DNA of 64,000 bases from Candidatus Poribacteria bacterium (GTDB lineage: Bacteria > Poribacteria > WGA-4E > WGA-3G), in NCBI GenBank assembly GCA_963663765.2, contig CAXXUA010000006.1, positions 1 through 64,000 on the forward strand, read 5' to 3'. Below are positions 9,455-53,300 of the stretch, piece by piece. Under the pieces are notes generated by a model. The model searched no databases. It saw nothing but the letters and a program-made list of their open reading frames with translations, and was not told the origin of the DNA. The translations under genes and the position numbers were made by a program. Position 1 is the stretch's first letter. Each line of letters begins with the position of its first letter.

Positions 9455-9471
9455 CGTTGGAGGAAGATTAT

Positions 9472-34212: not shown

Positions 34213-35298
34213 TCACTCAGCCACGGTACGCGTGATGACAGAATGGTCAGCACTACCAGTCACAAGGACACTCCCATCCGGACTGAATGCAACGCTGTTC
34301 ACTTGAGCCACATGATCCGTGAATGTTTCCAGTTCCGACCCGCTGTTTGCATCCCACAGACGCGCGGTCATGTCCCAACTGGCAGTCGCGACCTTGCTAC
34401 TATCCGAACTGAACGCAACGCCGATGACTTGAGCCGTATGTCCCGTGAGCGTACGCAGGTGCATGCCATCGGATGCGTCCCACAAACGAGCGGTGTTGTC
34501 AGAACAGCCACTGGCGATCATACTCCCATCCGGACTGAACACGACGCTGTTTATATCATGCGTATGTCCTGTCATCGTGCGGATCTCCGTGCCATCGCTG
34601 ACGTTCCACATACGGACGGTATCGTCATAACTGCCACTGACGAGCGTGTCCCCATCCGGACTGAACGCAACCGTTCTGGCAGCATCCGTGTGTCCTTCAA
34701 GCTTGCGAATTTCCGTGCCGTTGCTTGGGTTCCAAAAACGGATGGTGCGGTCGAAACCAGCAGTCGCAAGAATATCACCATCCGGATTGAACGCAACATA
34801 AGTGACACTATCCGTATGTCCTGTGATGGTGAGGATTTCAGAACCGTCGCTCGTGTCCCACAGACGCGCAGTGTTGTCAAAAGCAGCAGTCGCGAGCATA
34901 GTGCCATCCGGACTGAACGTTATGTTTCTGACAATATCCGTATGTCCTGTGAGCGTGTGTAGTTCAGTGCCATCGCTTGCGTCCCACAACTTGGCGGTGT
35001 TGTCATAAGCACCACTTGCGATCATGTCGCCTTCCGGACTGAACGCCACGCTGTAGATGGTATTCGTATGTCCTGTGAGAGAACCGACAAAATAGACTTC
35101 TTCCGGTTCTTCGGGTTCTTCCGGTTCCTCAGGTTCTTCCGGTTCCTCAGGTTCTTCCGGTTCGGTTCCATTCGTTTGGTTATCCATGTTGTTAGCCATC
35201 ATTTGGTCGTCTTTATCTGTTGTGTCATCATCATCGCCGCCACATGCGACCATCATAATGCAGACAAGAATGCTGAGTATCACTAAACTTTTTTTCAT
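34213..35298 (-). CDS. WD40 lipoprotein (7 blades) with (EEP)n linker
   Basis: Lipobox MVAC; 42-aa GHT...W repeats; 9-bp tandem repeat ~35097-35165. Confidence 0.9.
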   Translation of the reverse strand: MKKSLVILSILVCIMMVACGGDDDDTTDKDDQMMANNMDNQTNGTEPEEPEEPEEPEEPEEPEEPEEVYFVGSLTGHTNTIYSVAFSPEGDMIASGAYDNTAKLWDASDGTELHTLTGHTDIVRNITFSPDGTMLATAAFDNTARLWDTSDGSEILTITGHTDSVTYVAFNPDGDILATAGFDRTIRFWNPSNGTEIRKLEGHTDAARTVAFSPDGDTLVSGSYDDTVRMWNVSDGTEIRTMTGHTHDINSVVFSPDGSMIASGCSDNTARLWDASDGMHLRTLTGHTAQVIGVAFSSDSSKVATASWDMTARLWDANSGSELETFTDHVAQVNSVAFSPDGSVLVTGSADHSVITRTVAE

Positions 35299-35523
35299 CT
35301 TATACTCCTTTTTAATTGAATTTTGCTGCAATTATAATTCATAAACAAAATTATGTCAAGATGTGGTAAATCCTGAAAATCCGTGATTCTGTCTGAAACA
35401 GGATTTTCAGGATTAGTATATTTTCAGGATTACGCTATCAAGTTGCAGGCGGGGAATGCCTTTTGGCATTCCCCGGATATGAATACCTTATGGTATTCGC
35501 CGCCTGCAAGTGAGGCAAAACAA

Positions 35524-35571
35524 TTGACAATGTTATCGTTTTATGATGTAATATGTCCAAATATTACATCA
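35524..35571 (+). promoter_or_regulatory. Promoter with overlapping palindromic operator-like site
   Basis: TTGACA-17-TGTAAT; perfect IR TGATGTAATAT-6-ATATTACATCA at 35544-35571; related sites upstream of three paralogues. Confidence 0.55.
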
Positions 35572-35586
35572 CAAAAGGAGTTATGT

Positions 35587-36627
35587 ATGAAAAGATGCTT
35601 ATTGATGATACTCAGTCTTTTCCTCGCTATGATGATCGTTGCGTGTGGAGGTGATGATGATGAGACAACTACACCTATAGAAGACGATAATATGGTGATG
35701 GATAACGGCACACAAACGCCTATAGAACTGCTACCAGAACCTGTCAGGACCTATTATTCAGGCACACTCATAGGACATACGGGTGATGTTGATTCCGTCG
35801 CGTTTAGTCCGGATGGGAGCATTCTCGCCAGTGGAAGTAGAGACAACACCGTTCGTTTGTGGAACACAAGTGACGGCACGCCTCTTCGCACACTCACAGG
35901 ACATACGGGTGATGTTGTTTCCGTGGCTTTCAGTCCGGATGGGAGCATACTCGCCAGTGGGAGTTATGACTACACCGTGCGTTTGTGGAACACAAGTGAC
36001 GGCACACCTCTCCACACACTTACAGGGCATACGTTTGCTGTCCTCAGCATATCATTCAGTCCGGATGGTAAGACAATTGTGAGTTGCAGTAGTGACAACA
36101 CCATCCGTTTGTGGAATGTAGACGACGGCACACACCTCCGCACGTTCACAGAACATACGCATTTTGTCTTGGATGTCGCTTTCAGTCCGGATGGTAAAAC
36201 TCTCGCCAGTTGCAGTGGGGACAACACTATCCGTTTGTGGAATGTAAGTGATGGTCAACAGCTCCAAATCTTTACAGAACTAACAGGAATCGTCGCTTTC
36301 AGTCCGGATGGAGACACCCTCGCCACTGTCAGTAGAGATGACATCCGTTTGTTGAACGTAAGTGACGGCTCGCATATCCGTACACTCAGAGGGCATTTGA
36401 ATAGTGTTTGGGACGTCGCGTTCAGTCCGGATGGTAAAACTCTCGCCAGTTGCAGTATTGACAGGACCGTCCGTTTGTGGAATGTAGACGACGGCTTGCT
36501 TCTTCGCACGTTCACATCCACATCGATTTTTGATGTTTTGTGGAGCGTAGCGTTCAGTTCTGACGGTAATGCCCTCGCCAGTGGTAGTCAGGAAAATACC
36601 ATCCGTCTGTGGGATGTACGTGAGTGA
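35587..36627 (+). CDS. WD40 lipoprotein (7 blades)
   Basis: AAGGAG RBS; MKRCLL...IVAC lipobox; 7 WD40 repeats. Confidence 0.9.
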   Translation: MKRCLLMILSLFLAMMIVACGGDDDETTTPIEDDNMVMDNGTQTPIELLPEPVRTYYSGTLIGHTGDVDSVAFSPDGSILASGSRDNTVRLWNTSDGTPLRTLTGHTGDVVSVAFSPDGSILASGSYDYTVRLWNTSDGTPLHTLTGHTFAVLSISFSPDGKTIVSCSSDNTIRLWNVDDGTHLRTFTEHTHFVLDVAFSPDGKTLASCSGDNTIRLWNVSDGQQLQIFTELTGIVAFSPDGDTLATVSRDDIRLLNVSDGSHIRTLRGHLNSVWDVAFSPDGKTLASCSIDRTVRLWNVDDGLLLRTFTSTSIFDVLWSVAFSSDGNALASGSQENTIRLWDVRE

Positions 36628-36774
36628 TGCGGGTTATCTGAACCAGGATTTTCAGGATTAGTAGATTTCCAGGATTACGCTATCCAGTTGCAGGCGGGGA
36701 ATGCATAAATGCGAATGCGCGTATGGCATTCGCCATGATTCATACCGTTGATTTGGTGCTTTGTAAGCGCCCCC

Positions 36775-36917
36775 CATAGGCGTCAATTTAAGAAAATATT
36801 GTTGTCATTTTTCTTGTGGGAGGGGTTTTCAACCCCGATTTGAGCGGAAATGCACTAAAAAATCGGGGTTGAAAACCCCTCCCACAAAAGGTGAAAATCC
36901 TTAAATTGACGCCTATG
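36775..36917. mobile_element. Type D MITE with 19-bp TSD, inserted in a REP
   Basis: Flanks 36756-36774 and 36918-36936 match at 18/19; carries a TGTGGGAGGGG REP doublet. Confidence 0.88.
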
Positions 36918-37233
36918 GTGCTTTGTAAGCGCGCCCTCTTGTCTGACCCAGGATTTTCAGGATTACCAGATTTTCAGGATTAGAGTCTGGTGCATCTTGC
37001 CTCCATTCACCAGATAACATCAATGTGTATCAAAAATCCTTGATAGCATAATCCTGATAATCCACTAATCCCGGGGAATGCTATATAGCATTCATACCGT
37101 TGATTTCTTGATTTGAAAATCCTGGTTCAGACACTCCGTGTAATCTGCGATTCAGAACACAAATCCGCCTCACCTGCTATTCCGAACACAAACCAGCGTC
37201 CTCCGTGTAATCCTTGTTTCCGTTCACACCATA

Positions 37234-39123
37234 CTACTGAACATCCCAGAGCATGACCGTGTCCTGACGAGTCAGGCTACCCAACGTCTTTCCATCTGAT
37301 GTGAACGCAACTTTGGTAACAGAAGCGTAATGCCACGAAAATGTGTGCTGCACAGTCCCTGTCGTTGCATCTAATACCTTCACTGCACCTAAATTATACC
37401 CCACGGCGAGCCGCTTACCATCCGGGCTATAAGCAAGACTCAAGACATGATCGTCTTGGTGCTTGAATGCCGTGTTCATCGTGTGCTTCTGCGTATCCCA
37501 CAGATATATGGTTTTGGTATGGTCCGCAATCGCAAACGTTTTGCCATCCGGACTATAGGCGAGACTTGCAATCCTGTCAAACTTTTCTCGGATGACATGT
37601 TTGACCGTGCCAGTGTCCACATGCCATAGACGCACAGTCTTATCACTACTGCCACTTACCAGGGTTTTGCCATCCGGACTATAAACAATATCCGTAACAC
37701 TCTGTTTATGCCCTTCAAGTGTGCGTTGATGTTCACCTGTTCCGACATCCCAGAGGCGAATCGTGTTATCCTTACGACCCGTTGCGAGTGTTTTGCCATC
37801 CGGACTATATGCGACACACAAGGGATACGACTTATGTCCGTTCAGCACCATTTTTATTTTACCTGTCCCTCGATCCCACACGTTGACACCGCTTCCGTAA
37901 TTCGCAATAGCGATCATCTTGCCATCCGGACTCAACGCAACGTCAGCGAAAGGCGAATATCCATCATTGATAAATGTTTTCTGTAGACCGCACGATGTCA
38001 CATCCCATAGATAGACATGAGTGGCAAAACCCTGTGAGACGATATTGTCATCATCCGGACAGAAAGCAAAGCAGGTGAAAATGCCTAAGTGTTCATTTTC
38101 CGTATATATGTTTTTCCCAGAAGCAACGTCCCAGAAACGGAGTGTATTGTCTATACCGGTACTCGCGATGGTGCGATAATCAGGATTGAATGCAACTGTC
38201 ATCACTTGGTCATTATGACCTTTAAGCGTTTGCGCCTTTTCGGCGGTGTCTGTCAGGTATAACTGGATCGTTCCATCTGAGTTGCAAGTGGCAAAAAGGG
38301 TGCTGTCCGGACTAAAGACGATGCTATTAAAAACGTCCTTCTGAATATTGATGGTGTGTAGTTGTTTGCCTGTTTCCGTGTTCCAGAGGCGAATGTTCTT
38401 TGCACCTCCCACGCTTGCCAAGATTGCACCGTCGTGACTGAACGTTAAAGACTTCGGATGTGTCTCGTGTCCTTTGAGTGTCCGTATATTTTTACCGGTA
38501 AAGAGATCCCACACATGTATGTTATTATTGTTATCATATCCGGTTGCTAACAGTAGCTTAGCATCACAGATGGCACTGCAAAAAATGTGTTCACCAATAT
38601 CTTGTATCTGTGCAAGCTCGTGTTTTTTCTCGCCTGTGTCAGCATCCCAAGTAATTGTTTCCCCGTTGTCATCAAAGGTCACAAAGGATTTTGAATCTGA
38701 TGCGAAAGCGACATATAGGACACGTGCCTCGTAGTTAAGTCTATATTTATGCGTGCCTGTTTTGCTATCCCACAGATGGACGACACCCTTTAGTCCATTA
38801 CTGGCAAGCAGCTGCCCATCCGGACTAAAAACGATATTCGTGACATACGTTTTATGTTTGCTCAGCAAACGGATTGGCTGAAAGGTGAGTGTGTCATAAA
38901 TCCAGACACCGAGAGATGTTGCTACCGCCAGCTGTCTGCCATCCGCGTTGTATTGTATATCGTTTATGCGACCTTTACCGATACGTGCTTTTGCCCCTTC
39001 CGGTAAGTCTATGAAAGCACTCGAGACCTGTGCACAAACCGTGGGATGATAGAGGATTGAAAGGGCAAAAAGCAGCAGCCATATTGTTGTGTGAAATCTG
39101 TTTTGGATATGCATGTGTATCAC
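37234..39123 (-). CDS. Secreted WD40 repeat protein (~14 blades)
   Basis: Signal-like N-terminus; LPEGAKARIGKG leader; many SPDG/LWD repeats. Confidence 0.88.
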   Translation of the reverse strand: MIHMHIQNRFHTTIWLLLFALSILYHPTVCAQVSSAFIDLPEGAKARIGKGRINDIQYNADGRQLAVATSLGVWIYDTLTFQPIRLLSKHKTYVTNIVFSPDGQLLASNGLKGVVHLWDSKTGTHKYRLNYEARVLYVAFASDSKSFVTFDDNGETITWDADTGEKKHELAQIQDIGEHIFCSAICDAKLLLATGYDNNNNIHVWDLFTGKNIRTLKGHETHPKSLTFSHDGAILASVGGAKNIRLWNTETGKQLHTINIQKDVFNSIVFSPDSTLFATCNSDGTIQLYLTDTAEKAQTLKGHNDQVMTVAFNPDYRTIASTGIDNTLRFWDVASGKNIYTENEHLGIFTCFAFCPDDDNIVSQGFATHVYLWDVTSCGLQKTFINDGYSPFADVALSPDGKMIAIANYGSGVNVWDRGTGKIKMVLNGHKSYPLCVAYSPDGKTLATGRKDNTIRLWDVGTGEHQRTLEGHKQSVTDIVYSPDGKTLVSGSSDKTVRLWHVDTGTVKHVIREKFDRIASLAYSPDGKTFAIADHTKTIYLWDTQKHTMNTAFKHQDDHVLSLAYSPDGKRLAVGYNLGAVKVLDATTGTVQHTFSWHYASVTKVAFTSDGKTLGSLTRQDTVMLWDVQ

Positions 39124-39541
39124 CTGTATATATTATACCAAATTAATCTATACTGTGCCATGTTGTAGGCGGGGAATGCCTAAATGGCATTCATACCGTT
39201 GATTTGGTGCTTTGTAAGTGCGCCCTCTTATCTGAACCAGGATTTACAGGATTTACGGATTTACAGGATTTCCCCCATTAGATGTTTCTTCTTAGAGAAA
39301 GTCTATCTTTTCAATGGACTCAACGGCATAAAACTCACAATCCTGAAAATCTGGTAATCCTGTAAATCCTGGTTCAGACAGCATTAGATGTTTCTGCTTA
39401 GAGAAAGTCTATCTTTTCAATGGAACCCAACAGCATAAAACTCACAATCCTGTCCATCCGGTAATCCTGTCCATCCTGGTTCAGACAAATAACATCTGTG
39501 TCCTCCGCGATTCAGAACGCACACCCCGCGTTGGTAGGAAC

Positions 39542-41003
39542 GGGTGTGTAAAGTTTTTGTAGAAATACTGATGTGTAAAGAGATGTTGCGAAATTTAATA
39601 AAAAATGGTACCCTTTCCTAATAATCAAATTATAATCATATTTATAGGAGAGGATACCAATGCTCAATATTAATATAAGTATACCATCAGAGTGTCACGA
39701 AATCAAGGAGATTTTAGAAGAGATCGCTGAGGTTACTGGAACACTTTCGTCATCCCCTTGCGTCCCATTAGAAGAAGTTGAGACTTGTGTGCGAGACCTT
39801 ATGCTTAGAAATGCTCAAAAGTTAGTAGAAGCGTGTGTATCAGCACATGCTTCTCAGCAATCAGAAGAACCTGTTGAATGCCCAGAATGTGAACAAGTGT
39901 GTCGTCCGATACAGAAGCGCGGTGTGAATATCACGACACTTTGTGGCAAGATCCGTGTGAACCGTTGGGTGTATAAATGTAGTTCGGGACATTACCATAG
40001 ACCTTGGGATGTGCGGCAAAAGTTGATAGGTAAATGGACGCGTCGTGTTGTAGAACGGATATGTAATGTTGCTGCTCATTTTGACTATAGAGCCGCGGTA
40101 AAAGAGTTGTCTTTTCAAGGGATAGAAGTGAGCCATACGGCAGTGCGTGAAAAAGTGCTTGAATGTTCAGAAGATTTGAATGTGTGTGAACAAGTAGAAT
40201 GCCAAACCCTTGAAGACAATCAGCGTTGGTATGTGAGTTGTGATGGATGCCACACCAACTCACAAGAGGGGTGGAAAGAAACCAAAGTTGGTTGTATTTA
40301 TAGAGATTATCCACAACCTCCGAATAGTTCTGGTGCGACACCGAGTGCGAGAACACCAAGCATTCGTTATGTTGCTGAGCGTGAGAATGCGGCTCATTTC
40401 GGTAAAGAGTTGTATAAGTTAGCAACGCAGAGCGGCATCTATCAAGAAGATATAGGGACGCAAGAGGTCGTATTTATCGGAGATGGAGCGGCGTGGATAT
40501 GGAACTTAGCGGATGAATACTTCCCGAATGCTGTAGAGATTGTGGATTACATGCATGCCAAATCACATCTTTATGATGTGGCTAAAGTTGCCTTTGGTGA
40601 GACAGAAACAGAAGACGTAGAAACTTGGGTCACAGAGACAGAACCCTTTCTTTTTGATGGCAACATTCCAGAAGTTGTCTCACGTATCCGTGCTTTAGCC
40701 ACACAGCACCCAGACGTTTGTGAGATTTTAGTAAGAGAAACAGGTTATTTTGAAAAACACGCGAAACGGATGCAATATAAGACGTTTAGAGAAAAGGGGT
40801 ATCAGGTTGGGAGTGGTGTGATTGAGAGTGCGTGTAAACATGTTGTGGGACAAAGGTGTAAACAAGCAGCTATGAGATGGAAAAAAGAAGGTATCAACTC
40901 AGTGCTTGCTTTACGGTGTTTAGTCAAAAATAAGGCGTGGGACAGATATTGGATGCAACACCCACAAGCAGCATGAAACTTATAACCAAAACTTTACACA
41001 CCC
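39542..41003 (+). mobile_element. Complete ISKra4-family-like insertion sequence, 9-bp TSD
   Basis: 16-bp TIR GGGTGTGTAAAGTTTT; GGTAGGAAC at 39533-39541 and 41004-41012. Confidence 0.9.
39660..40976 (+). CDS. ISKra4-family transposase
   Basis: VSCDG, GDGAAWIW, VDYMHAKSHL, GSGVIESACKHVV...RW motifs; Zn-ribbon CPEC. Confidence 0.88.
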   Translation: MLNINISIPSECHEIKEILEEIAEVTGTLSSSPCVPLEEVETCVRDLMLRNAQKLVEACVSAHASQQSEEPVECPECEQVCRPIQKRGVNITTLCGKIRVNRWVYKCSSGHYHRPWDVRQKLIGKWTRRVVERICNVAAHFDYRAAVKELSFQGIEVSHTAVREKVLECSEDLNVCEQVECQTLEDNQRWYVSCDGCHTNSQEGWKETKVGCIYRDYPQPPNSSGATPSARTPSIRYVAERENAAHFGKELYKLATQSGIYQEDIGTQEVVFIGDGAAWIWNLADEYFPNAVEIVDYMHAKSHLYDVAKVAFGETETEDVETWVTETEPFLFDGNIPEVVSRIRALATQHPDVCEILVRETGYFEKHAKRMQYKTFREKGYQVGSGVIESACKHVVGQRCKQAAMRWKKEGINSVLALRCLVKNKAWDRYWMQHPQAA

Positions 41004-41082
41004 GGTAGGAACGACCTCTTTGACTAAATAAGAAATCTATGCTAAACTACACACTAAATCAAATAATCAAAGAAGGTATATA

Positions 41083-42930
41083 ATGAAAAAACTATTAATA
41101 CCAATCCTAATGACAATGATCATCACCCTCATCACAGCATGCAGCAACAACTCAAAATCACAAAATACACAAATTGTTCTACCCGAAGGCGCAAAAACAC
41201 GACTCGGTAAAGGAACTATCGGACAGATTCAGTTCTCACCAGACAGCACCAAACTTGCCGTAGCGAGTCGTATCGGTATCTGGATTTACAACGCAAAAAC
41301 AGGTGAAGAAATTGACCTATATGCAGGACAAACGAGATATGTGTCTTCTATAGCATTTAGTCCTGATGGCAACACACTCGCAGGCGGAAGTTGGGACGAA
41401 ACTATCCGACTGTGGGATGTCAAGACAGGTGAGCATACCCGCACCCTTCAAGGACATACGGGGGCTGTTATTTCTGTAGGATTTAGTCCTGATGGTAAGA
41501 CACTTGCAAGTGCAAGTGTGGACAAAACTATCCGGCTGTGGGACGTCAAGACAGGTGAACATACCCACACACTTCAAGGACATACGAGATATGTGTCTTC
41601 TATAGCATTTAGTCTGGATGGCAACACACTCGCAAGTGGAAGTTGGGACGAAACGATCCGGCTGTGGGACGTCAAGACAGCTGAACATACCCGCACCCTT
41701 CAAGGACATACGAGGGCTGTCCTTTCTGTAGCATTTAGTCCTGATGGTAAGACACTAGCGAGCGGAAGTTCGGACGAAACGATCCGGCTGTGGGACGCCA
41801 AGACAGCTGAACATATCCACACCCTTCAAGGACATACAGAGATTGTCCTTTCTGTAGCATTTAGTCCTGATGGTAGCACTATCGCAAGTGGAAGTGAGGA
41901 CGATACAATTTGGCTGTGGGACGCCAAGACAGCTGAACATACTCACACACTTCAAGGACATAGGGGAGATGTTAGATCTGTAGCATTTAGTCCTGATGGT
42001 AAGACACTCGCAAGTGGAAGTTGGGCCGAAACTATCCGGCTGTGGGACGCCAAGACAGCTGAACATATCCACACCTTTCAAGGACATACAGGGATTGTCC
42101 TTTCTGTAGCATTTAGTCCTGATGGCAAGACACTCGTAAGTGGAAGTGAGGACGATACAATTCGGTTGTGGGACGCCAAGACAGCTGAACATATCCACAC
42201 CCTTCAAGGACATACTGAGTCTGTTATTTCTGTAGCATTTAGTCCTGATGGTAGCACTATCGCAAGTGGAAGTGAGGACGATACAATTTGGCTGTGGGAC
42301 GCCAAGACAGCTGAACATATCCACACCTTTCAAGGACATACTGAGTCTGTTATTTCTGTAGCATTTAGTCCGGATGGTAGCACTATCGCAAGTGGAAGTG
42401 GGGACGATACGATCCGGCTGTGGGATGCCAAGACAGCTGAACATATCCGCACCCTTCAAGGACATACTGAGTCTGTTATTTCTGTAGCATTTAGTCCTGA
42501 TGGTAGCACTATCGCAAGTGGAAGTTATGACGATACAATTCGGCTGTGGGTCGTCAAGACAGCTGAACATATCCACACCCTTCAAGGACATACTGTGTCT
42601 GTTAATTCTTTAGCGTTTAGTCCTGATGGTAAGACACTCGCAAGTGCAAGTAGGGACAAAACTATCCGGCTGTGGGACGCCAAGACAGCTGAACATCTCC
42701 GCACCTTTCAAGGACATACTGATTATGTTAATTCTGTAGCATTTAGTCCGGATGGTAACACACTCGCAAGTGGGAGTAGGGACAAAACTATCCGACTGTG
42801 GGATTCCAAGACAGCTGAACATACCCACACACTTCAAGGACATAGGGGAGATGTTAGATCTTTAGCATTTAGTCCGGATGGTAAGACACTCGCAAGTGCA
42901 AGTGTGGACGGCACCATACTGCTGTGGTAA
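41083..42930 (+). CDS. WD40 lipoprotein with 13 near-identical 126-bp repeats plus a divergent first blade
   Basis: Lipobox ITAC; GHTxxVxSVAFSPDGxTxASGSxDxTIRLWDAKTAEH repeats. Confidence 0.92.
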   Translation: MKKLLIPILMTMIITLITACSNNSKSQNTQIVLPEGAKTRLGKGTIGQIQFSPDSTKLAVASRIGIWIYNAKTGEEIDLYAGQTRYVSSIAFSPDGNTLAGGSWDETIRLWDVKTGEHTRTLQGHTGAVISVGFSPDGKTLASASVDKTIRLWDVKTGEHTHTLQGHTRYVSSIAFSLDGNTLASGSWDETIRLWDVKTAEHTRTLQGHTRAVLSVAFSPDGKTLASGSSDETIRLWDAKTAEHIHTLQGHTEIVLSVAFSPDGSTIASGSEDDTIWLWDAKTAEHTHTLQGHRGDVRSVAFSPDGKTLASGSWAETIRLWDAKTAEHIHTFQGHTGIVLSVAFSPDGKTLVSGSEDDTIRLWDAKTAEHIHTLQGHTESVISVAFSPDGSTIASGSEDDTIWLWDAKTAEHIHTFQGHTESVISVAFSPDGSTIASGSGDDTIRLWDAKTAEHIRTLQGHTESVISVAFSPDGSTIASGSYDDTIRLWVVKTAEHIHTLQGHTVSVNSLAFSPDGKTLASASRDKTIRLWDAKTAEHLRTFQGHTDYVNSVAFSPDGNTLASGSRDKTIRLWDSKTAEHTHTLQGHRGDVRSLAFSPDGKTLASASVDGTILLW

Positions 42931-43580: not shown

Positions 43581-43991
43581 TCAACTCACAATGCGCTGTT
43601 GTTCCAGCACCTCTATTTTTCGGTAAAGTTCCTCAAGTTTTCTCTCAAACTCCCTTTGTTGTCTGCCTTGCAGCACAGAGATGAACTGCGGAATGCCGAT
43701 AGCAACAACAATCAACGCAATCAATCCATAAGTGATGTTGATGCCATACGTGACCCGTTTATCTACACTCTGAATCTCTTTTTCAACAGAATCAAATCTG
43801 ACATTCACATAATCCTTCATCCGTGCTTCGGACGCGGCTATCTCTTGCTTTAACTCTTTCTTGGCTACTGCTATCTCATCCTTGACAACTAACCTGATCT
43901 TATCCAGGTCTTCGGTAGATAGCGAGACTTGACTGAATGCTGGCACAGCGATAAGACTATATAAGATTGCGGTTATGCATAAAGTTTTCAT
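43581..43991 (-). CDS. Small signal peptide/coiled-coil/TM protein, copy 1 (136 aa)
   Basis: AAGGAG RBS; signal peptide; coiled coil; hydrophobic helix GLIALIVVAIGIP; five paralogues in window. Confidence 0.8.
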   Translation of the reverse strand: MKTLCITAILYSLIAVPAFSQVSLSTEDLDKIRLVVKDEIAVAKKELKQEIAASEARMKDYVNVRFDSVEKEIQSVDKRVTYGINITYGLIALIVVAIGIPQFISVLQGRQQREFERKLEELYRKIEVLEQQRIVS

Positions 43992-44013
43992 TTGCGGGGC
44001 TCCTTGTATGCAT

Positions 44014-44449: not shown

Positions 44450-44818
44450 TCAATTCACAATGCGTTGTTGTTCCAGCACCTCTATTTTTCGGTAAAGCTC
44501 CTCAAGTTTTCTCTCAAACTCCCTTTGTTGTCTGCCTTGCAGCACAGAGATGAACTGCGGAATGCCGATAGCAAAAACAATCAACGCAATCAATCCGTAA
44601 GTGATGTTGATGCCATACGTTACACGTTTATCAACAGAATCAAATCTGACATTCACATAATCCTTGATCCGTGCTTCGGACGCGGCTATCTCTTCCTTGA
44701 CGACATCGTTGACAATCAACCTGATCTTATCCAGGTCTTCGGTAGATAACGAGACTTGACTGAATGCTGGCACAGCGATAAGACTATATAAAATTGCGGT
44801 GATGCATAAAGTTTTCAT
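44450..44818 (-). CDS. Small coiled-coil/TM protein, copy 2 (122 aa)
   Basis: Near-identical paralogue, two heptads shorter than copy 1. Confidence 0.8.
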   Translation of the reverse strand: MKTLCITAILYSLIAVPAFSQVSLSTEDLDKIRLIVNDVVKEEIAASEARIKDYVNVRFDSVDKRVTYGINITYGLIALIVFAIGIPQFISVLQGRQQREFERKLEELYRKIEVLEQQRIVN

Positions 44819-45630: not shown

Positions 45631-46020
45631 TCAGCTCACAATGCGCTGTTGTTCCAGCACCTCTATTTTTCGGTAAAGTTCCTCAAGTTTTCTCTCAAAG
45701 TCCCTTTGTTGTCTGCCTTGCAACACAGATATGAACTGCGGAATGCCGATAGCAAAAACAATCAACGCAATCAATCCATAAGTGATGTTGATGCCATACG
45801 TGACACGTTTATCTACACTCTGAATCTCTTTTTCAACAGAATCAAATCTGACATTCACATAATCCTTGATCCGTGCTTCGGACGCGGCTATCTCTTCCTT
45901 GACGACATCGTTGACAATCAACCTGATCTTATCCAGGTCTTTGGTAGATAACGAGACTTGACTGAATGCTGGCACAGCGATAAGACTATATAAGATTGCG
46001 GTTATGCATAAAGTTTTCAT
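45631..46020 (-). CDS. Small coiled-coil/TM protein, copy 3 (129 aa)
   Basis: Paralogue carrying the EKEIQSV heptad. Confidence 0.8.
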   Translation of the reverse strand: MKTLCITAILYSLIAVPAFSQVSLSTKDLDKIRLIVNDVVKEEIAASEARIKDYVNVRFDSVEKEIQSVDKRVTYGINITYGLIALIVFAIGIPQFISVLQGRQQRDFERKLEELYRKIEVLEQQRIVS

Positions 46021-46327
46021 TTGCGTGGCTCCTTGTATGCATAGTGTAGTCTATTTATATTTGTTTGTCAATAGGTTTCAATGGGGTTTTCAACCCCGAC
46101 CGTCAAAACACATGTGACGTCCTCCGTGCTTTTGTCTGAACCAGGATTTTCAGGATTTACGGATTTACAGGATTATGAGTTTGGAGCGTTATGCTGCTAA
46201 CCACAAGTAAGCATAAACGCGCATCATATATACCTGGATGTGGGAAATCCTTGTAATCTGTAAATCCCGGGGAATGCTATATAGCATTCATACCGTTGAT
46301 TTGAAATCCTGGTTCAGATAACCAACA

Positions 46328-47380
46328 TCACTCACTAACATCCCACATGCGCACGGTGTTGTCCACACTCCCACTTGCGATTGTGCTACCATCCGGACTG
46401 AACGCGACGCTCAAGACATTACCCGAATGCCCTGTGAGTGTGCGGATATGCGTGCCACTGTTTGCGTTCCACAATCGGATGGTATCGTCAGGACTGCCAC
46501 TTGCGAGTGTGCTACCATCCGGACTGAACGCGACGCTTACGACATAATGCGTATGCCCTGTGAGTGTGCGGAGATGTGTGCCGTTGCTTGCATTCCACAA
46601 ACGGATGGTATCGTCCCCAATCCCACTTGCGAGTGTGCTACCATCTGGACTGAACGCTACGCTGTTGACCCAATCCGTCTGTCCTGTGAGCGTGCGGATA
46701 TGTGTGCCAAAGTTTGGGTTCCACAAACGGATGGTATCGTCCGCACTGCCACTTGCGATTGTGCTACCATCCGGACTGAACGCTACGCTGTTGACCCTAT
46801 CCGTATGCCCTGTGAGCCTGCGGAGATGTGTGCCGTTGCTTGCATTCCACAAACGGATAGTAGCGTCATTACTCCCACTTGCGATTGTGCTACCATCCGG
46901 ACTAAATGCTACGCTCCTGACACTACTCGTATGCCCTGTCAACGTGCCGATATTTGTGCCATTGTTTGTGTCCCACACACGAACGGTTCTGTCCCCACTG
47001 CCACTTGCGATTGTGCTACCATCCGGACTAAACGATACGGTGTAGACATTATCCGTATGCCCTGATAGTATACGTATCTGTCTGCCATCGCTCGTGTTCC
47101 ACAAACGGATGGTATCGTCATTACTCCCACTTGCGATTGTGCTCCCATCAGGACTAAAAGCTACGCTGTTGACATAACCCGTATGCCCAACAAGTGTGCC
47201 TTCATAATAGGTTCTTTCAGGTTCTGGTGGTGGGTCTACGGGTGTTTGTGTGCCGTTATCCATTTTATCGTCATCCATCACCATTTTGTCGTCTTCTATA
47301 GGTGTGGTGGTCTCATCACCGCCGCACGCAACGAGCATCATGGCGAGGAATATGCTGAGTATCACTAAACTTCTTTTCAT
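46328..47380 (-). CDS. WD40 lipoprotein (7 blades)
   Basis: AAGGAG RBS; MKRSLV...LVAC lipobox; 7 repeats. Confidence 0.92.
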   Translation of the reverse strand: MKRSLVILSIFLAMMLVACGGDETTTPIEDDKMVMDDDKMDNGTQTPVDPPPEPERTYYEGTLVGHTGYVNSVAFSPDGSTIASGSNDDTIRLWNTSDGRQIRILSGHTDNVYTVSFSPDGSTIASGSGDRTVRVWDTNNGTNIGTLTGHTSSVRSVAFSPDGSTIASGSNDATIRLWNASNGTHLRRLTGHTDRVNSVAFSPDGSTIASGSADDTIRLWNPNFGTHIRTLTGQTDWVNSVAFSPDGSTLASGIGDDTIRLWNASNGTHLRTLTGHTHYVVSVAFSPDGSTLASGSPDDTIRLWNANSGTHIRTLTGHSGNVLSVAFSPDGSTIASGSVDNTVRMWDVSE

Positions 47381-47672
47381 AATATTCTCCTTTTGTATGT
47401 AATATTTGGACATATTACATCATAAACAAAAACATGTCAATGTAGGCGTGCATTGTCCGCGCGCCCTCTTGTCTGAACCAGGATTTACAGGATTACCAGA
47501 TTATCAGGATTATGAGTTTGGCGCATTATGCTGCTAACCACAAGTAAGCATAAACGCGCATCATATATACCTGGATGTGGGAAATCCTTGTAATCTGTAA
47601 ATCCCGGGGAATGCTATATAGCATTCATACCGTTGATTTCTTGATTTGAAATCCTGGTTCAGAGAACCAACA

Positions 47673-48695
47673 TCACTCACGCACATCCCACATGCGCACG
47701 GTGCTGTCATAACTACCACTGGCGAGGGCATTACCATCTGGACTAAACGCGACGCTGGTGACAAAATCAGTATGTCCTGTTAGCGTGCGGATATGTGTGC
47801 CATCATTTGCGTTCCACAAACGGATGGTCTCGTCAGGACTGGCACTGGCGAGGGCATTACCATCCGGACTAAACGCGACGCTCCAGACATCCAACTCATG
47901 TCCTGTTAGCGTGCGGATATGCGTGCCATCATTTGAGTTCCATACGCGCACGGTTTTGTCCGCACTGGCACTGGCGAGGGCATTACCATCCGGACTAAAC
48001 ACTACGCTGTTGACAGTTCCCGTATGCCCTGTGAGTGTGCGCTTATGTGTGCCATCATTTGCGTTCCATACGCGCACGGTGTTGTCCCTACTTCCACTCG
48101 CAAGGGTGCTACCATCCGGACTGAACGCGACGCTCAAGACATTACGCGAATGCCCTGTGAGTGTGCGGATATGCGTGCCACTGTTTGCGTTCCACAAACG
48201 GATGGTATCGTCCTGACTTCCACTTGCGAGTGTGCTGCCATCCGGACTGAATGCTACGCTTACGGCACCATCCGTATGCCCTGATAATATACGTATCAGT
48301 CTACCATCGTTCGTGTCCCACAATCGGATGGTATCGTCCCAACTCCCACTTGCGAGTGTGCTCCCATCCGGACTGAACGCTACGCTTACGGCACCACCCG
48401 TATGCCCTGATAATATACGTATCAGTCTACCATCGTTCGTGTCCCATAATCGGATGGTATCGTCCCAACTCTCACTTGCGATTGTGCTCCCATCCGGACT
48501 GAACGCTACGCTTCCGACAGCATCCGTATGCCCTTCAAGTGTGCCTTCATAATAGGTTCTGTCAGGATCTACTACGGGTGTTTGTGTGCCGTTATCCATT
48601 TTGTCGTCTTCTACGGGCGTGGTGGTCTCATCACCACCGCACGCAACGAGCATCATGGCGAGGAAGATGCTGAGTATCAATAAACTTCTTTTCAT
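47673..48695 (-). CDS. WD40 lipoprotein (7 blades)
   Basis: Lipobox LVAC; 7 repeats, blades 1-3 share recently duplicated segments. Confidence 0.92.
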   Translation of the reverse strand: MKRSLLILSIFLAMMLVACGGDETTTPVEDDKMDNGTQTPVVDPDRTYYEGTLEGHTDAVGSVAFSPDGSTIASESWDDTIRLWDTNDGRLIRILSGHTGGAVSVAFSPDGSTLASGSWDDTIRLWDTNDGRLIRILSGHTDGAVSVAFSPDGSTLASGSQDDTIRLWNANSGTHIRTLTGHSRNVLSVAFSPDGSTLASGSRDNTVRVWNANDGTHKRTLTGHTGTVNSVVFSPDGNALASASADKTVRVWNSNDGTHIRTLTGHELDVWSVAFSPDGNALASASPDETIRLWNANDGTHIRTLTGHTDFVTSVAFSPDGNALASGSYDSTVRMWDVRE

Positions 48696-49023
48696 AATAA
48701 ACTCCTTTTATGTGTAATATTTGGACATAATACATCACAAACGAATATATGTCAATTATTTTGTCTCACTTGGGGTGTGTATGATGCATCTTGTGGGAGT
48801 GGTTTTCAACATAATCCTGGTTCAGACAGAATCACGGATTACACAGATTACACGGAAGACGCGTAGAAGAGTTACTGCATCAAGGTGTTTTGCAGAGGAT
48901 AGGCGTATTCTAAGGGATAGGATTTGTGGGATCTTATCCGCGTCTTCTGTGTAATCCGCGTAATCTACGATTCTGAACGCCAATCTCCGTGTAATCCGTG
49001 ATTCCGCACACCAATCCGCGTCA

Positions 49024-49392
49024 TCAACTCACAATGCGCTGTTGTTCCAGCACCTCTATTTTTCGGTAAAGTTCCTCAAGTTTTCTCTCATATTCCCTTT
49101 ATTGTCTGCCTTGCAACACAGAGATGAACTGCGGAATGCCGATAGCAACAACAATCAAAGCAATCAATCCGTAAGTGATGTTGATGCCATACGTGACCCG
49201 TTTATCTACAGAATCAAATCTGACATTCACATAATCCTTCATCCGTGCTTCGGACGCGGTTATCTCTTCCTTGACGACATCGTTGACAATCAACCTGATC
49301 TTATCCAGGTCTTCGGTAGATAACGAGACTTGACTGAATGCTGGCACAGCGATAAGACTATATAAGATTGCGGTTATGCATAAAGTTTTCAT
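49024..49392 (-). pseudogene. Small coiled-coil/TM protein, copy 4, nonsense CAA>TAA at 49099-49101
   Basis: Homology to the paralogues continues past the stop. Confidence 0.75.
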
Positions 49393-50207
49393 TTGCGGGA
49401 CTCCTTGTATGCATAGTGTAGTTTATTTATATTTGTTTGTCAATAGGTTTCTTAAGGTAGGGCGTGTAAAGAGGTAGGGCGTGTAAAGTTTTGGTTACTG
49501 TGCCGTAGGGGCGGGGTCTCCCCGCCCGAATAGAGGCTAATGCGGGTGAGGTAATCTCGCCCCTACGATGTCCACTATTCCCTTGTTCCCCAACTTGTGC
49601 GAGGGGTTTTCAAACCCGACTTTAACCAGTAGGCTGGGAATGCCTAAAGAAGCATGCGCGTATGGCATGCTCCATGATTCATACCCGGGGAATGCTTAAA
49701 AGGCATTCATACCGTTGATTACTTGATTTGGTGCTTTGTAAGCGCGCCCCTCTTGCAGGCGGGGAATGCCTAAATGGCATGCGCGTATGGCATGCTCCAT
49801 GATTCATACCCGGGGAATGCCAAAAGGCATTCATACCGTTGATTACTTGATTTGGTGCTTTGTAAGCGCGCCCTCTTGTCTGAACCAGGATTCACAGGAT
49901 TTTCGGATTACCAGGATTTACCATATCCAGGGTTTCTGCTCAAGGAAAGTCTATCTTCGGAATGGAAACCAACCGCTTCAGACACTAATCCTGATAATCC
50001 AGTAAATCCTGGTTCAGACAGAACATGTTGTGGGAGGGGTTTTTAACCCCGATTTAGCAATTTGAAACCTATATACTCGGGGTTACAAACCCTCCCACAA
50101 GAAGGGTGTTTGATATGTGTTTATGATCATTTCGGAATAGGATGTGATGGGATAATCCTGAAAATCCTGGGTCAGACAAATAGGACCATTTCTGTTTGGT
50201 GAGTATG

Positions 50208-50468
50208 TCAACCGACAGCGATGGCGTAATCGGTTAAAGATGGACTCCGCATCTTTGCACGTTTAGCTGCCTCTACTAATTCCTTGACAGTGTCAATGAG
50301 TGCATCCACTGTTTCAGGTGTGAAGGAGGGTTCTCCATCTTCTGGACACACCCATGCCCAGACCTTCTCTACGCGAACCGATATGTCGTCTTCGGTATAC
50401 TCAAAGACCGTTTGCCGCCACACTTTTTCTGTCTTATGTTCTGTGCAGATGGGTTTCGGGTTTGTCAT
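50208..50468 (-). CDS. YgiT-type zinc-finger protein (putative antitoxin)
   Basis: CTEH...VWAWVCPEDGEPSFTPET; lies downstream of a DUF4258-like gene. Confidence 0.7.
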   Translation of the reverse strand: MTNPKPICTEHKTEKVWRQTVFEYTEDDISVRVEKVWAWVCPEDGEPSFTPETVDALIDTVKELVEAAKRAKMRSPSLTDYAIAVG

Positions 50469-50474
50469 GGTATG

Positions 50475-50738
50475 TTACCTCTTTCTGCTTTTCCTACGTT
50501 GAAAGGTCGGTGGTTCCCATTGGAGTACATCAGGAATATAGGCGGTTATGATGTCAAGAATCACTGGTTGTGCATGCTCACAGACAACATGCAGATAGAC
50601 ATGTGTGCCATCCTCAAGCATTGTCATACCACTGATTAAGACTCGTTTATCTTCTGGATATTCCTCTATGATCTCGCCATTGAGAATTGCCTCAAGAATA
50701 TGCTTACGTTCAAATCCTTCTTTCAACGCATGCTGCAC
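50475..50738 (-). CDS. DUF4258-like protein (putative toxin), 5' end possibly degraded
   Basis: HA...ILEAILNGEIIEEYPED...LHVVC...IITAYIPD..W. Confidence 0.75.
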   Translation of the reverse strand: MQHALKEGFERKHILEAILNGEIIEEYPEDKRVLISGMTMLEDGTHVYLHVVCEHAQPVILDIITAYIPDVLQWEPPTFQRRKSRKR

Positions 50739-51713
50739 AGCATGTGGTTTGGTAATGACCTGCGTGGATTCTATTCTGTATCGTTTTTTATATTCAAGAT
50801 TACTTTTCCATTAGCAGGTAAGGACACATGCTACCAATATTCATTAAAGGATATACTATAAAGGATATACTATTTTTGGACATTTGTCAATTGCTTTTTC
50901 AAAATCTGGCGTGTAAAGTTTTGGTTACTGTGCCGTAGGGGCGGGGTCTCCCCGCCCGAATAGAGGCTAATGCGGGCGAGGAAATCACGCCCCTACGATG
51001 TCCACTGTTCCCTTGTTCCCCAACTTGTGGGAAGGGTTTTCAACCCCGGCTTTAACCAGTAGGCTGGGAATGCCTAAAGAAGCATGCGCGTATGGCATGC
51101 TCCATGATTCATACCCGGTGAATGCCAAAAGGCATTCATACCGTTGATTACTTGATTTGATGCTTGTAAGCGCGCCCCTTCCCCTCTTGCAGGCGTGCTT
51201 TGTAAGCGCGCCCCTCTTGCAGGCGGGGAATGCCTAAAGGAGCATGCGCGTATAGCATGCTCCATGATTCATACCCGGGGAATACCATAAGGTATTCATA
51301 CCGTTGATTACTTGATTTGGTGCTTTGTCCGCGCGCCCTCTTGTCTGAACCAGGATTCACAGGATTACCAGATTACCAGGATTTCCAACATCCAGGAATA
51401 TATGATCTGCATTTATGCTTACTTTTGGTTAGCAGCATAATGAGCCAAACTCATAATCTTGAAAATCTGGTAATCCCGGGGAATGCCATAAGGCATTCAT
51501 ACCGTTGATTTCTTGATTTGTAAATCCTGGTTCAGACAGAACATGTTGTGGGAGGGGTTTTCAACCCCGATTTAGCAATTTGAAACCTAAATACTCGGGG
51601 TTACAAACCCCTCCCACAAGATGGGTGTTTGATATGTGTATATGATCATTTCGGAATAGGATGTGATGGGATAATCCTGAAAATCCTGGTTCGGACAAAT
51701 AAAACCCGCGTCA

Positions 51714-52103
51714 TCAACTCACAATGCGTTGTTGTTCCAGCACCTCTATTTTTCGGTAAAGATCCTCAAGTTTTCTTTCAAAGTCCCTTTGTTGTCAGCC
51801 TTGCAGCACAGAGATGAACTGCGGAATGCCGATAGCAAAAACAATCAACGCAATAAATCCATAAGTGATGTTGATGCCATACGTGACCCGTTTATCTACA
51901 CTCTGGATCTCTTTTTCAACAGAATCAAATCTGACATTCACATAATCCTTGATCCGTGCTTCGGACGCGGCTATCTCTTCCTTGACGACATCGTTGACAA
52001 TCAACCTGATCTTATCCAGGTCTTCGGTAGATAGGGAGACTTGACTGAATGCTGGCACAGCGATAAGACTATATAAGATTGCGGTTATGCATAAAGTTTT
52101 CAT
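51714..52103 (-). pseudogene. Small coiled-coil/TM protein, copy 5, nonsense AGA>TGA at 51795-51797
   Basis: Homology to the paralogues continues past the stop. Confidence 0.75.
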
Positions 52104-52377
52104 TTGCGGGGCTCCTTGCATGCATAGTGTAGTCTATTTATATTTGTTTGTCAATAGGTTTCTATGGGGTTTTCAACCCCGACCGTCAAAACACATGTGA
52201 CGTCCTCCGTGCTTTTGTCTGAACCAGGATTTTCAGGATTTACGGATTTACAGGATTATGAGTTTGGCGCGTTATGCTGCTAACCACAAGTAAGCATAAA
52301 CGCGCATCATATATACCTGGATGTGGGAAATCCTGTAAATCTGCTAATCCTGTCCATCCTGGTTCAGACAATCAACA

Positions 52378-53300
52378 TCACTCACGCACATCCCACATGC
52401 GCACGGTGTCGTCATAACTGCCACTTGCGAGTGTGCTACCATCAGGACTGAACGCTACGCTTACGACATCATTTGTATGCCCTGTGAGTGTGCGGATATG
52501 TGTGCCATCGTTCGCATTCCACAAACGGATGGTGTTGTCCCGACTGGCACTGGCGAGCGTACTCCCATCCGGACTAAACGCTACGCTGCGGACCCTACCC
52601 GGATGCCCTGTGAGTGTGCGGATATGGTTGCCGTCATTTGCGTTCCACAAACGGATGGTGTTGTCAAAACTACCACTTGCGAGTGTGCTACCATCCGGAC
52701 TAAACGTTACGCTGTTGACATAATCCGTATGCCCTGTGAGCGTGCGGATGTGCGTACCGTTATTTGCGTTCCACAAACGGATAGTGTGGTCTCTACTACC
52801 ACTTGCGATTGTGCTACCAACCGACCGAACGCTACGCTGGTGACTTGCGACGTATGCCCTGTGAGTGTGCGGATATGTGTGCCGTTGCTTGCATTCCACA
52901 AACGGATGGTTATGTCCATACTCCCACTGGCGACTGTGCTACCATCAGGACTAAACGCTACGCTTAAGACCCAACTCGTATGTCCTGTGAGTGTGCGGAT
53001 ATGGTTGCCGTCATTTGCGTTCCACAAACGGATGGTATTGTCCTCACTCCCACTTGCGATTGTGCTCCCATCAGGACTAAAAGCTACGCTTGTGACATAA
53101 CCCGTATGTCCTACGAGCGTGCCTTCATAATAGGTTCTTTCAGGTTCTGGTGGTGGGTCTACGGGTGTTTGTGTGTCGTTATCCATTTTATCGTCATCCA
53201 TCACCATTTTGTCGTCTTCTATAGGCGTGGTGGTCTCATCACCACCGCACGCAACGAGCATCATGGCGAGGAATATGCTGAATATCACTAAACTCCTTTT
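52378..53300 (-). pseudogene. WD40 lipoprotein pseudogene (6 blades)
   Basis: 17-bp deletion removes the ATG relative to 47380; 1-bp frameshift near 52820. Confidence 0.85.

Follow-up and report, generated by a model that had tools for sequence, protein, structure and literature searches.

A family of seven-blade WD40 lipoproteins with variation focused on the propeller top face in a Candidatus Poribacteria genome

The WD40 genes of the window

We analysed a stretch of 64,000 nucleotides (the window) at the start of contig C6 (CAXXUA010000006.1) of a Candidatus Poribacteria assembly (GCA_963663765.2). The assembly comprises 6.35 Mb in 15 contigs, the largest up to 1.8 Mb, and the genome is 97.8% complete. 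Between positions 34213 and 53300 the window carries seven WD40 genes, denoted A to G, six of which have lipoprotein leaders (five intact and one dead).

34213-35298, minus strand: gene A, seven-blade WD40 lipoprotein with leader MKKSLVILSILVCIMMVAC (ending MVAC) and an acidic linker of PEE repeats
35587-36627, plus strand: gene B, seven-blade WD40 lipoprotein with a leader ending MMIVAC
37234-39123, minus strand: gene C, WD40 protein with 12-14 divergent blades, of the LPEGAKxRxGKG type, a neighbour outside the lipoprotein family
41083-42930, plus strand: gene D, 14-blade WD40 lipoprotein with a leader ending LITAC
46328-47380, minus strand: gene E, seven-blade WD40 lipoprotein with leader MKRSLVILSIFLAMMLVAC (ending LVAC), a disordered acidic linker and the propeller
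47673-48695, minus strand: gene F, seven-blade WD40 lipoprotein whose blades are in a rearranged order, with a leader ending LVAC
52378-53288, minus strand: gene G, pseudogene of the seven-blade family with six blades, a frame break and a lost start codon

A first-pass annotation made from the letters of the window had described six lipoprotein genes, one of them a pseudogene, built of 126-bp blades. This anatomy was confirmed: genes A, B, D, E and F are intact and G is dead, and Tandem Repeats Finder placed 126-bp arrays in all six, with a maximum of 12.4 copies at 85% matches in D. The Pfam WD40 model (PF00400) matched 6-13 stretches per intact gene with E-values from 1.5e-84 to 3.8e-180, and among the best 25 families per protein the WD40 genes of the window matched WD40-type families only. 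With blade positions counted from the G of GHT as position 1, the residues H2, S20, D24 and W30 were kept in 95, 88, 95 and 97% of 40 blades, respectively. An Rfam search over the whole window gave no matches.

The genes differ in detail. The blades of gene A are comparatively divergent, and Tandem Repeats Finder found a 9-bp repeat within the gene at 35098-35163. In gene B, blade 5 is short by four residues and blade 7 has a two-residue insert, and both features recur in the paralog C6:369483. Gene C has a signal-peptide-like N-terminus without a lipobox, and its blades are far more divergent. Gene D consists of a divergent first blade and 13 near-identical blades; its residue sets at the variable positions (RY/GA/RA/EI/GD/GI/ES/VS/DY and W/V/S/E/G/Y/R) were reproduced as previously listed. 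Gene G retains six blades; a single nucleotide is deleted at about 52823/52824, and its leader no longer has an ATG. The six lipoprotein genes had been regarded as one family, which held for A, B, E, F and G but not for D, a member of a separate 14-blade subfamily.

Variation, selection and recombination among the blades

Variation had been placed at the motifs GHT-xx-V-x and GS-x-D-x, and entropy peaked accordingly at positions 4, 5, 7, 23 and 25 (2.97, 3.34, 3.18, 3.57 and 2.68 bits, respectively, in 40 ungapped window blades). The next-highest position reached 2.21 bits, and most frame positions lay below 1.4 bits. A blade profile built from the window and run on stop-to-stop open reading frames (ORFs) gave 2007 blade matches genome-wide, of which 1363 were kept and 644, being gapped or cut, were left out. 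Ranked by conservation within each protein, positions 5, 23, 4 and 7 fell in the lowest five in 98, 82, 78 and 77 of 126 ORFs, and position 25 in 37 of them. At the variable sites D, N, S, G, R, Y and W are abundant, whereas L, I and V are scarce. Each of 69 blades from the seven-blade family had a distinct five-residue set, and the identity of paralogs in register was 0.13 at the variable sites, which equals chance, and 0.73 in the frame.

Passages of Wu et al. 2012 (PMC3419727) place the top-face hotspots R1 and R1-2 in a (V/L/I)-R1-R2-(V/L/I) fingerprint at the start of strand a, and the hotspot D-1 at the residue preceding the tetrad Asp. Given the blade fingerprint V6-x7-S8-V9 and D24, positions 7, 5 and 23 correspond to R1, R1-2 and D-1, and positions 4 and 25 flank the published hotspots. 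An AlphaFold model of the gene E product (mean predicted local distance difference test score, pLDDT, 88.9; predicted template modelling score, pTM, 0.81) had 28 strands, with propeller blocks at pLDDT 92-99 and leader and linker residues 1-5 and 12-46 below 50. [quoted passage not shown] The d-a and b-c loops form the WD40 fold's top face. Hotspots and modelled loops thus agree with the first-pass annotation, which had mapped the variable positions to the top face of the propeller. The best Foldseek matches of the model were seven-blade WRAP-T designs (7big, template modelling (TM) score 0.98, 57% identity), and further matches included the PkwA WD40 domain of T. curvata (5yzv), a Nostoc punctiforme repetitive propeller (2ymu) and WDR5.

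Tests across the seven-blade family covered 10 of its 13 intact genes, with 69 blades and the first 34 codons of each, which lets blade 7 be included. Genes B, C6:369483 and C7:105576 were left out for their indel-bearing or irregular blades, and blade 7 of C6:372848 was dropped. In pairwise p-distances, the ratio of nonsynonymous distance (pN) at the five sites to mean synonymous distance (pS) was 2.07, 2.38, 2.52, 2.49 and 1.48 in D (12 blades), where positions 16, 32 and 38 also exceeded 1. In E, F and G combined (17 blades) it was 1.38, 1.67, 1.84, 1.79 and 1.22, and all other sites were at or below 0.98. Parsimony counts over the 69 blades on a tree from all codons gave ratios of nonsynonymous change (dN) to mean synonymous change (dS) of 1.35, 1.69, 1.68, 1.62 and 1.20 at positions 4, 5, 7, 23 and 25 (Poisson P = 0.025, 7e-5, 1.4e-4, 2.5e-4 and 0.14). 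On a tree from frame codons the five ratios were 1.60, 2.23, 2.11, 2.08 and 1.58, and the remaining 29 codons were all at or below 0.92.

Nearest-neighbour pairs (n = 59) differed in amino acid at 256 of 295 variable codons and at 298 of 1711 frame codons, with pN at variable codons 2.1 times the frame pS. In recent disjoint pairs taken genome-wide, the nonsynonymous to synonymous ratio at variable codons was 1.82 for pairs of at least 95% frame identity (n = 46; 161 nonsynonymous and 19 synonymous changes; P = 0.0055) and 1.74 for pairs of at least 90% (n = 84; P = 4.7e-5). Nine such pairs among the window genes had 43 nonsynonymous and two synonymous changes (ratio 5.4, P = 0.0056). Frame ratios in this test were 0.23-0.46, and pN at variable codons was 2.4-5.6 times the pooled pS. 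Furthermore, the old pair A and C4:929340 has 13 of 35 top-face residues in common at 60% frame identity (P = 2.7e-4), indicating that the variable sites are not simply free. A site-wise dN/dS check had been proposed in the first-pass annotation, and parsimony and recent-pair counts both put amino-acid change in excess at the variable codons. Diversifying selection on the top face would be the best reading of these tests together.

Recombination has left footprints in the arrays, the clearest being a tract shared by genes E and F.

46383-46489, minus strand: 107-nt tract in E, from blade 6.55 to 7.40, matching the F tract at 105/107
48106-48212, minus strand: 107-nt tract in F, from blade 3.55 to 4.40, matching the E tract three blades out of register

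The match, its coordinates and its location at the junctions of blades 6-7 in E and 3-4 in F were all reproduced as first reported. The flanks on the same diagonal matched at 250/321 and 37/52, the in-register F segment matched the E tract at 85/107, and the best 107-nt window at other offsets reached 96/107. Gene F is rearranged: blades F1 and F2, 94% alike, resemble E1 (84 and 85%), F3 resembles E6 (91%) and F4 resembles E7 (84%). Comparing gene E with the C4 paralog at 1164324 gave the highest blade identities along the diagonal (79, 87, 82, 87, 80, 85 and 80%), showing that some paralogs are colinear. Across 13 propeller genes, all eight tracts of at least 80 nt with at most two mismatches were out of register or within one gene. 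Two link C4:1163101 and G at 3.41/2.42 (111 nt) and 4.41/3.41 (84 nt), each one blade out of register; the others are the E 6.55/F 3.55 tract (107 nt), four tracts inside D and one inside F.

In a blade tree, gene labels required 35 changes against a shuffled mean of 51.5 (reached by 0 of 500 shuffles). Position labels required 42 against 47.1 for all blades (10 of 500 shuffles) and 40 against 39.5 for positions 1-6 alone (334 of 500). A nearest neighbour at the same position was found in nine of ten blade-7 cases. The mixing of blades expected in the first-pass annotation therefore stood for blades 1-6, which group by gene and not by position, and failed for blade 7. Judging from these patterns, the closing blade 7 is position-specific, and the other blades are apparently homogenised within genes and sometimes exchanged between genes. 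The six blades of the dead gene G, compared with seven in 13 of 13 intact members, indicate that blade number changes and that seven is held by selection.

A reverse transcriptase search (PF00078) gave no matches in the 97.8% complete genome, and a diversity-generating or other retroelement was rejected on this ground. Neither a recombinase nor an invertible element or cassette logic was seen beside the window genes. Consequently no active diversity generator was seen, and the earlier proposal of a system that generates diversity was not upheld; the recombination footprints are, as far as they can be read, of evolutionary scale.

Four public sequence runs, all kept as contigs, were compared with the window. 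Genes A and C and unique flanks match public contigs exactly, with no differences in A and C in three runs from two studies. In a run labelled sponge metagenome, gene C is present at about 98% identity, with 14, 16 and 11 differences in pieces of 757, 658 and 633 nt, respectively. Among the differences listed for this run, three fall in gene A and all are nonsynonymous: S>R at blade 3, position 5, F>L at blade 2, position 23, and D>N at blade 2, position 4. The four among those listed for the leader and linker of gene E are all synonymous. Public contigs break inside the repeat arrays, the pieces listed do not span the arrays of D, E, F or G, and many apparent joints are repeat contigs placed at several sites. 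One run has an E-like base at 48146 within the shared tract of F, which may stem from a misplaced contig. In run X3, a variant contig at 52809-52826 has an extra A after 52821, adjoining the frame break of G; its depth of 49, compared with about 19 for unique DNA, suggests that it may stem from a paralog, and it was not used as evidence.

Extent of the family, export and surroundings

The 2007 blade matches fall in 211 WD40 ORFs that occupy 406,527 nt, or 6.4% of the genome. The first-pass annotation had described a candidate receptor system of six lipoprotein genes; with 211 WD40 ORFs genome-wide, the locus is not self-contained, and the family is part of this larger set. The seven-blade lipoprotein family has 13 intact members that align end to end from M1. 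Genes A, B, E and F are among them, and the others lie at C4:1160454-1165373, C6:350835, C6:369483, C6:372848, C4:929340, C15:66534 and C7:105576. Two copies are broken, namely G and one in the C4 cluster. The latter (C4:1161584-1162725) has an interrupted frame, and several of its blades lack two GH codons (TLT-TSRVYSVAF).

Members share a leader of the form MKRSLxILSIFLAMMLVAC, followed by C-G-G-D-[DE], an acidic low-complexity linker of variable length built from DDDxMVM or PEE units, and the propeller. Cys19, Gly20 and Asp22 are invariant in all 13 members, and the blade count is seven in every one. Gene D belongs to a larger 14-blade family with the motif LPEGAKxRLGKG in the first blade, a motif present in 85 of the 173 ORFs with at least six blades.

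A profile of the 13 proteins matched all 21 genomes of a genus and order sample. Full-length matches that include leader and linker numbered 13 and occurred only in this genome, and the best matches in relatives began at profile position 35 or later. Relatives also have seven-blade WD40 genes, with other N-termini: a lipobox of another kind in one, signal-peptide-like starts in a tandem pair, and neither feature in several. The leader and linker of gene E gave two matches among ten candidates in a collection of 5.8 billion proteins; the search relies on shared words and a length window, and absence elsewhere is not proven by it. Of the two, one is the G fragment of the window itself and the second a metagenome protein of 504 aa with TPR and trypsin-like peptidase domains, 63% identical to the gene E leader and acidic linker over 86% of 72 residues. 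The leader-tether module thus appears to have been reused with other passenger domains. Synteny did not define an orthologous locus, the flanking proteins having 50-56% and 38-47% identity in genomes of the same genus and being widely separated in genome G003.

The leader ends in LVAC, MVAC, IVAC, ITAC, IVGC, IMGC or FVAC in all 13 seven-blade members and in D, in keeping with the lipoprotein scheme of a basic n-region, a hydrophobic h-region and a lipobox ([LVI][ASTVI][GAS]C). Both processing enzymes are encoded in the genome, with Pfam scores above the cut-off (140.4 bits for LspA, 159.8 bits for Lgt). These features support the earlier description of the proteins as membrane-anchored lipoproteins, with lipidation predicted from leader and enzymes. 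Passages of Lauber et al. 2016 (PMC5080379) give lipoprotein export signals of Bacteroidota as C-X-K-(D/E)2, SDDDD and SDDFE. Like those surface lipoproteins, the family has acidic residues after the Cys (C-G-G-D-[DE], with Asp at +4 in 13 of 13). It differs in coming from another phylum and in having no Lys or Ser at +2/+3, and gene D has no acidic motif.

Export signals are common among the other WD40 proteins of the genome. A lipobox is present in 15 of the 173 ORFs with at least six blades and a hydrophobic N-terminal segment in 128, whereas 30 lack both, so that 143 are export-like by a simple heuristic that is not a signal-peptide predictor. Among the 211 WD40 ORFs, 21 have a dockerin domain, 15 a type IX secretion system (T9SS) type A sorting domain and eight both. 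Matches to a PorU-type T9SS sortase numbered eight, all partial and below the cut-off. Sampled fusions included WD40-dockerin, WD40-cohesin-dockerin-T9SS tail, WD40-cadherin/LRR-T9SS tail and long cadherin/LRR/Ig arrays (C5:1109445, C13:41566, C4:1054455, C3:582695, C7:61626, C11:144233, C5:1081545 and C13:474761), and the genome totals were 60 dockerin and 60 T9SS-tail matches. These domains hint at a cohesin-dockerin display scaffold unrelated to cellulose breakdown.

Two sampled WD40 ORFs (C11:68734-71460 and C5:1564734-1567514) combine, in a single polypeptide each, extracytoplasmic function (ECF) sigma regions 2 and 4, a helix at about residues 224-245, a linker and a 13-14-blade WD40 domain, and the neighbouring cluster at C11:65747-81425 looks like ECF-sigma/WD40 fusions. 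The layout of ECF sigma, one membrane helix and WD40 domain would place the propeller outside the cytoplasm, likely as a sensor. Similar fusions are described from Planctomycetes.

Interspersed with the WD40 genes of the window are five copies of a small repeated ORF.

43581-43991, minus strand: copy 1, with a signal-peptide-like start and a hydrophobic C-terminal segment
44450-44818, minus strand: copy 2
45631-46020, minus strand: copy 3, about 300 bp downstream of gene E
49099-49392, minus strand: copy 4, with a shorter open frame
51795-52121, minus strand: copy 5, downstream of pseudogene G

The copies encode 97-136 aa and are 88-100% identical; all share the signal-peptide-like start and the hydrophobic C-terminal segment, and some have a coiled-coil-like tail. 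More copies lie at C5:1121915 (81%) and C4:446826 (61%), the latter adjoining a WD40 lipoprotein ORF. Pfam and NCBIfam searches of the small ORF and of the gene E linker matched no families.

A UPF0236-family transposase-like ORF (39660-40976, plus strand) also lies between the WD40 genes; in public runs its contigs are about 8-10 times as deep as the unique DNA beside them and show several fixed differences, as a multi-copy element would. Two small adjacent ORFs at 50208-50738 (minus strand), one of them DUF4258, form a toxin-antitoxin-type-looking module inside the WD40 cluster. GC-rich piles of short tandem repeats occupy intergenic DNA at 53521-54094, 49631-49878, 39276-39487 and 56612-56694 (periods of 42, 124 and 107 bp). 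They are probably REP-type hairpin elements, and ORFs such as 53312-53878 are chance reading frames within them. At lower coordinates, a Type ISP restriction-modification enzyme (26345-29542, minus strand; coupler, N6 methylase and C-terminal specificity domain; E 6.6e-101) has a GC content of 0.44-0.50, higher than that of its neighbours. Five exported LRR proteins in a row occupy 811-23506 (plus strand); all end in dockerin, and a GHL15 glycosyl-hydrolase-like domain is present in two. Positions 6264-8348 and 9457-11634 contain two more WD40 ORFs. The window around the WD40 genes is thus rich in other exported repeat proteins (LRR-GHL15-dockerin, cadherin-LRR and TPR).

Interpretation and relation to known systems

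We consider it probable, with some reserve, that the 13-member lipid-anchored seven-blade family, together with gene D of the 14-blade family, provides ligand-binding modules outside the cytoplasm. They would make up a germline repertoire of envelope receptors or adhesins in a Poribacteria-like sponge symbiont, diversified by recombination and selection. Each protein would comprise a lipobox leader for the Sec and signal peptidase II (Sec/SPII) route, a disordered acidic tether of about 45 residues and a canonical WD40 propeller, whose 35 top-face residues, five per blade and unique to each paralog, may bind a partner. New specificities might arise by blade duplication, gene conversion and unequal recombination of 126-bp units within and between genes, and the repertoire would turn over by gene duplication and loss. 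Selection would favour replacements at R1-2, R1, D-1 and their neighbours while conserving the scaffold and the number of blades at seven. The propellers would be lipidated and sit in the cell envelope, and candidate ligands include host matrix, phage and other microbes.

A wider reading is possible, and we put it forward tentatively. The approximately 200 propellers of the genome (about 2000 blades, 6.4% of the genome) may form one outward-facing germline recognition repertoire for molecules of host, phage or neighbours, displayed by at least four routes (lipid anchor, dockerin, T9SS tail and membrane-spanning ECF-sigma fusion) and shaped by blade shuffling and top-face selection. If so, it would be a bacterial outward-facing counterpart of NLR/VLR-type receptor arrays, and the ECF-sigma fusions could signal to transcription.

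Several points weigh against a diversified receptor repertoire. All rate tests are counting methods applied to recombining repeats. Recent pairs were picked by frame identity, which lowers frame dS, and on the conservative tree the excess at positions 4 and 25 is marginal. In the nearest-neighbour pairs, the test within variable codons was not significant (pN/pS 1.12, binomial P = 0.18), the low ratio being due to saturation of these codons. The blade tree, from the 87 columns of the frame codons, has one well-supported branch of 66. Among 70 blades, the nearest blade in another gene was at the same position in 28, where about 10 were expected, so that position is partly kept, mostly in blade 7. 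Blade order rests on the assembly, the arrays being unbridged by independent contigs. The strain comparison is a small sample, with three sites among the differences listed. A lipobox by itself does not confer surface exposure, and lipoproteins may face the periplasm. The likeness of C-G-G-D-[DE] to the Bacteroidota signals is a lead towards surface exposure and not a test of it.

Among other explanations, it is unlikely that the paralogs are redundant products of concerted evolution, with the frame kept uniform by conversion and purifying selection and five relaxed loop sites. Chance-level identity at the variable sites in register (0.13 against 0.13) and the non-significant test within codons are consistent with unconstrained loops, and counted changes can be inflated by recombination. 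Relaxation fits poorly, however, with ratios of 1.7-5.4 in recent disjoint pairs (P from 0.0056 to 4.7e-5), with their pN of 2.4-5.6 times the pooled pS and with the 13 of 35 residues kept between A and C4:929340 (P = 2.7e-4). The composition biased to D, N, S, G, R, Y and W, with few L, I and V, and the seven blades of all 13 intact genes, the six-blade copy being dead, also speak against it. Another proposal, to which we give less credence, is that the propellers are periplasm-facing structural or regulatory scaffolds, such as envelope-assembly or signalling adaptors of the kind found among other beta-propeller lipoproteins. The 13 paralogs are whole only here among 21 genomes, with two matches to leader and linker among 5.8 billion proteins, which fits an accessory role, and housekeeping proteins are not expected under diversifying selection. 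Sister WD40 genes with dockerin and T9SS tails mark export past the periplasm, although the fusions of ECF sigma and 14-blade WD40 domain via one membrane helix suggest periplasmic or envelope sensing and a lipobox alone gives no surface exposure.

Programmed variation is very improbable, whether by transfer of blades from silent or dead copies (G, for example) to expressed genes within a population, in the manner of cassette-based antigenic variation, or by mutation of the variable codons through a retroelement. Every intact gene has its own leader, A and C show no differences in three runs from two studies, the nearly complete genome has no reverse transcriptase match, and neither a recombinase nor an invertible element was seen beside the genes. 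In its favour, the two longest near-identical tracts between genes involve G (111 and 84 nt, with C4:1163101), and the E-like base at 48146 in the shared tract of F in one run would count as well if it is not from a misplaced contig. Slighter still is the chance that blade order, out-of-register tracts and the six-blade pseudogene are artefacts of mis-joined repeats. Public contigs do break inside the arrays, and a paper on the fungal WD40 genes states that short-read assemblies cannot rebuild such arrays (PMC12222747). Here, by contrast, the assembly falls into 15 contigs, the longest reaching 1.8 Mb, all 13 intact genes are open with exactly seven blades, and unique flanks and genes A and C are exact in public contigs.

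The locus offers testable molecules, namely small single-domain, predicted lipid-anchored propellers with a near-constant scaffold, 35 variable residues each and signs of selection. Their scaffold is close to the WRAP-T designs, so that expression will probably be easy. A role in host contact is widely assumed for the repeat proteins of sponge symbionts, on evidence that consists mostly of domain counts. Should the propellers bind distinct partners, they would be an entry point to what a Poribacteria-like symbiont recognises in its host.

The core pattern is already known from bacterial Highly-Repetitive WD40 proteins, with fungal het-e/het-d as the classic case. Hu et al. 2017 (PMC5587647) describe, in passages of their article, Highly-Repetitive prokaryotic WD40s with near-identical 42-residue blades that are diverse at predicted hotspot sites; they report that organisms of the richest phyla have on average 13 and 10 WD40 proteins. 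Lipoproteins, signal peptides and Poribacteria do not occur in the main text. The window genes have the same conserved frame and the same diversity at R1-2, R1 and D-1. In addition, they resemble the solved repetitive propellers 2ymu, 5yzv and WRAP-T (50-58% identity, TM up to 0.98). Against the Highly-Repetitive mark of 0.7, internal identity was 0.76 in D, 0.72 in E and 0.69 in F by a mean pairwise measure, which is not the Hu procedure. Genes A, B and C lie below the 25 highest listed (lowest of those 0.54), and 11 of 126 ORFs reach 0.7. The 211 ORFs of this genome, mostly with export signals, differ from the published counts, although detection methods differ too.

For Poribacteria, Kamke et al. 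2014 (PMC3909097) report that WD40 domains are highly abundant on single-cell genomes, many with a Por/T9SS C-terminal sorting domain, which is in line with the 15 of 211 WD40 ORFs here that have such a domain. In the available parts of that article we found no blade-level analysis, hypervariable positions, WD40 lipoprotein family, or dockerin or ECF-sigma fusions. Our literature search, in which subscription journals were not covered, found no paper on WD40 lipoprotein families or on site-wise selection in WD40 repeats of sponge symbionts. New here are the lipid-anchored single-propeller form without an NTPase and the 13-gene family that is whole only in this genome. The scale of the WD40 complement and its mostly extracytoplasmic routing, as predicted from N-termini and sorting domains, are also new.

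The closest evolutionary parallel is the HNWD family of Podospora anserina. The portion of the HNWD paper available (PMC12222747) gives repeat positions 10, 11, 12, 14, 30, 32 and 39 as those of high dN/dS. It describes concerted evolution of the het-e, het-d and nwd paralogs with repeat gain, loss and shuffling, in which repeats group mostly by gene and are occasionally exchanged between paralogs. With an offset of 7, taken from the spacing and not from an alignment, these positions equal 3, 4, 5, 7, 23, 25 and 32 of the window blades. The spacing of hypervariable sites is identical, which supports the earlier statement that HET-E and HET-D vary at equivalent sites. Like the HNWD repeats, the window blades group by gene, are occasionally exchanged between paralogs and are highly conserved internally. 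The HNWD proteins are NLRs of the cytosol in which a NACHT (STAND) NTPase and an N-terminal effector domain precede the WD40 array, whereas the window proteins matched only WD40 families among their best 25 in Pfam and have a lipoprotein leader, a disordered linker and, in the seven-blade family, exactly seven blades. If these propellers do bind distinct partners, the evolution of a hypervariable face on a conserved scaffold seen in cytosolic immune receptors would extend to exported bacterial proteins. The window lipoproteins and the HNWD proteins work alike in their evolution and are not the same family.

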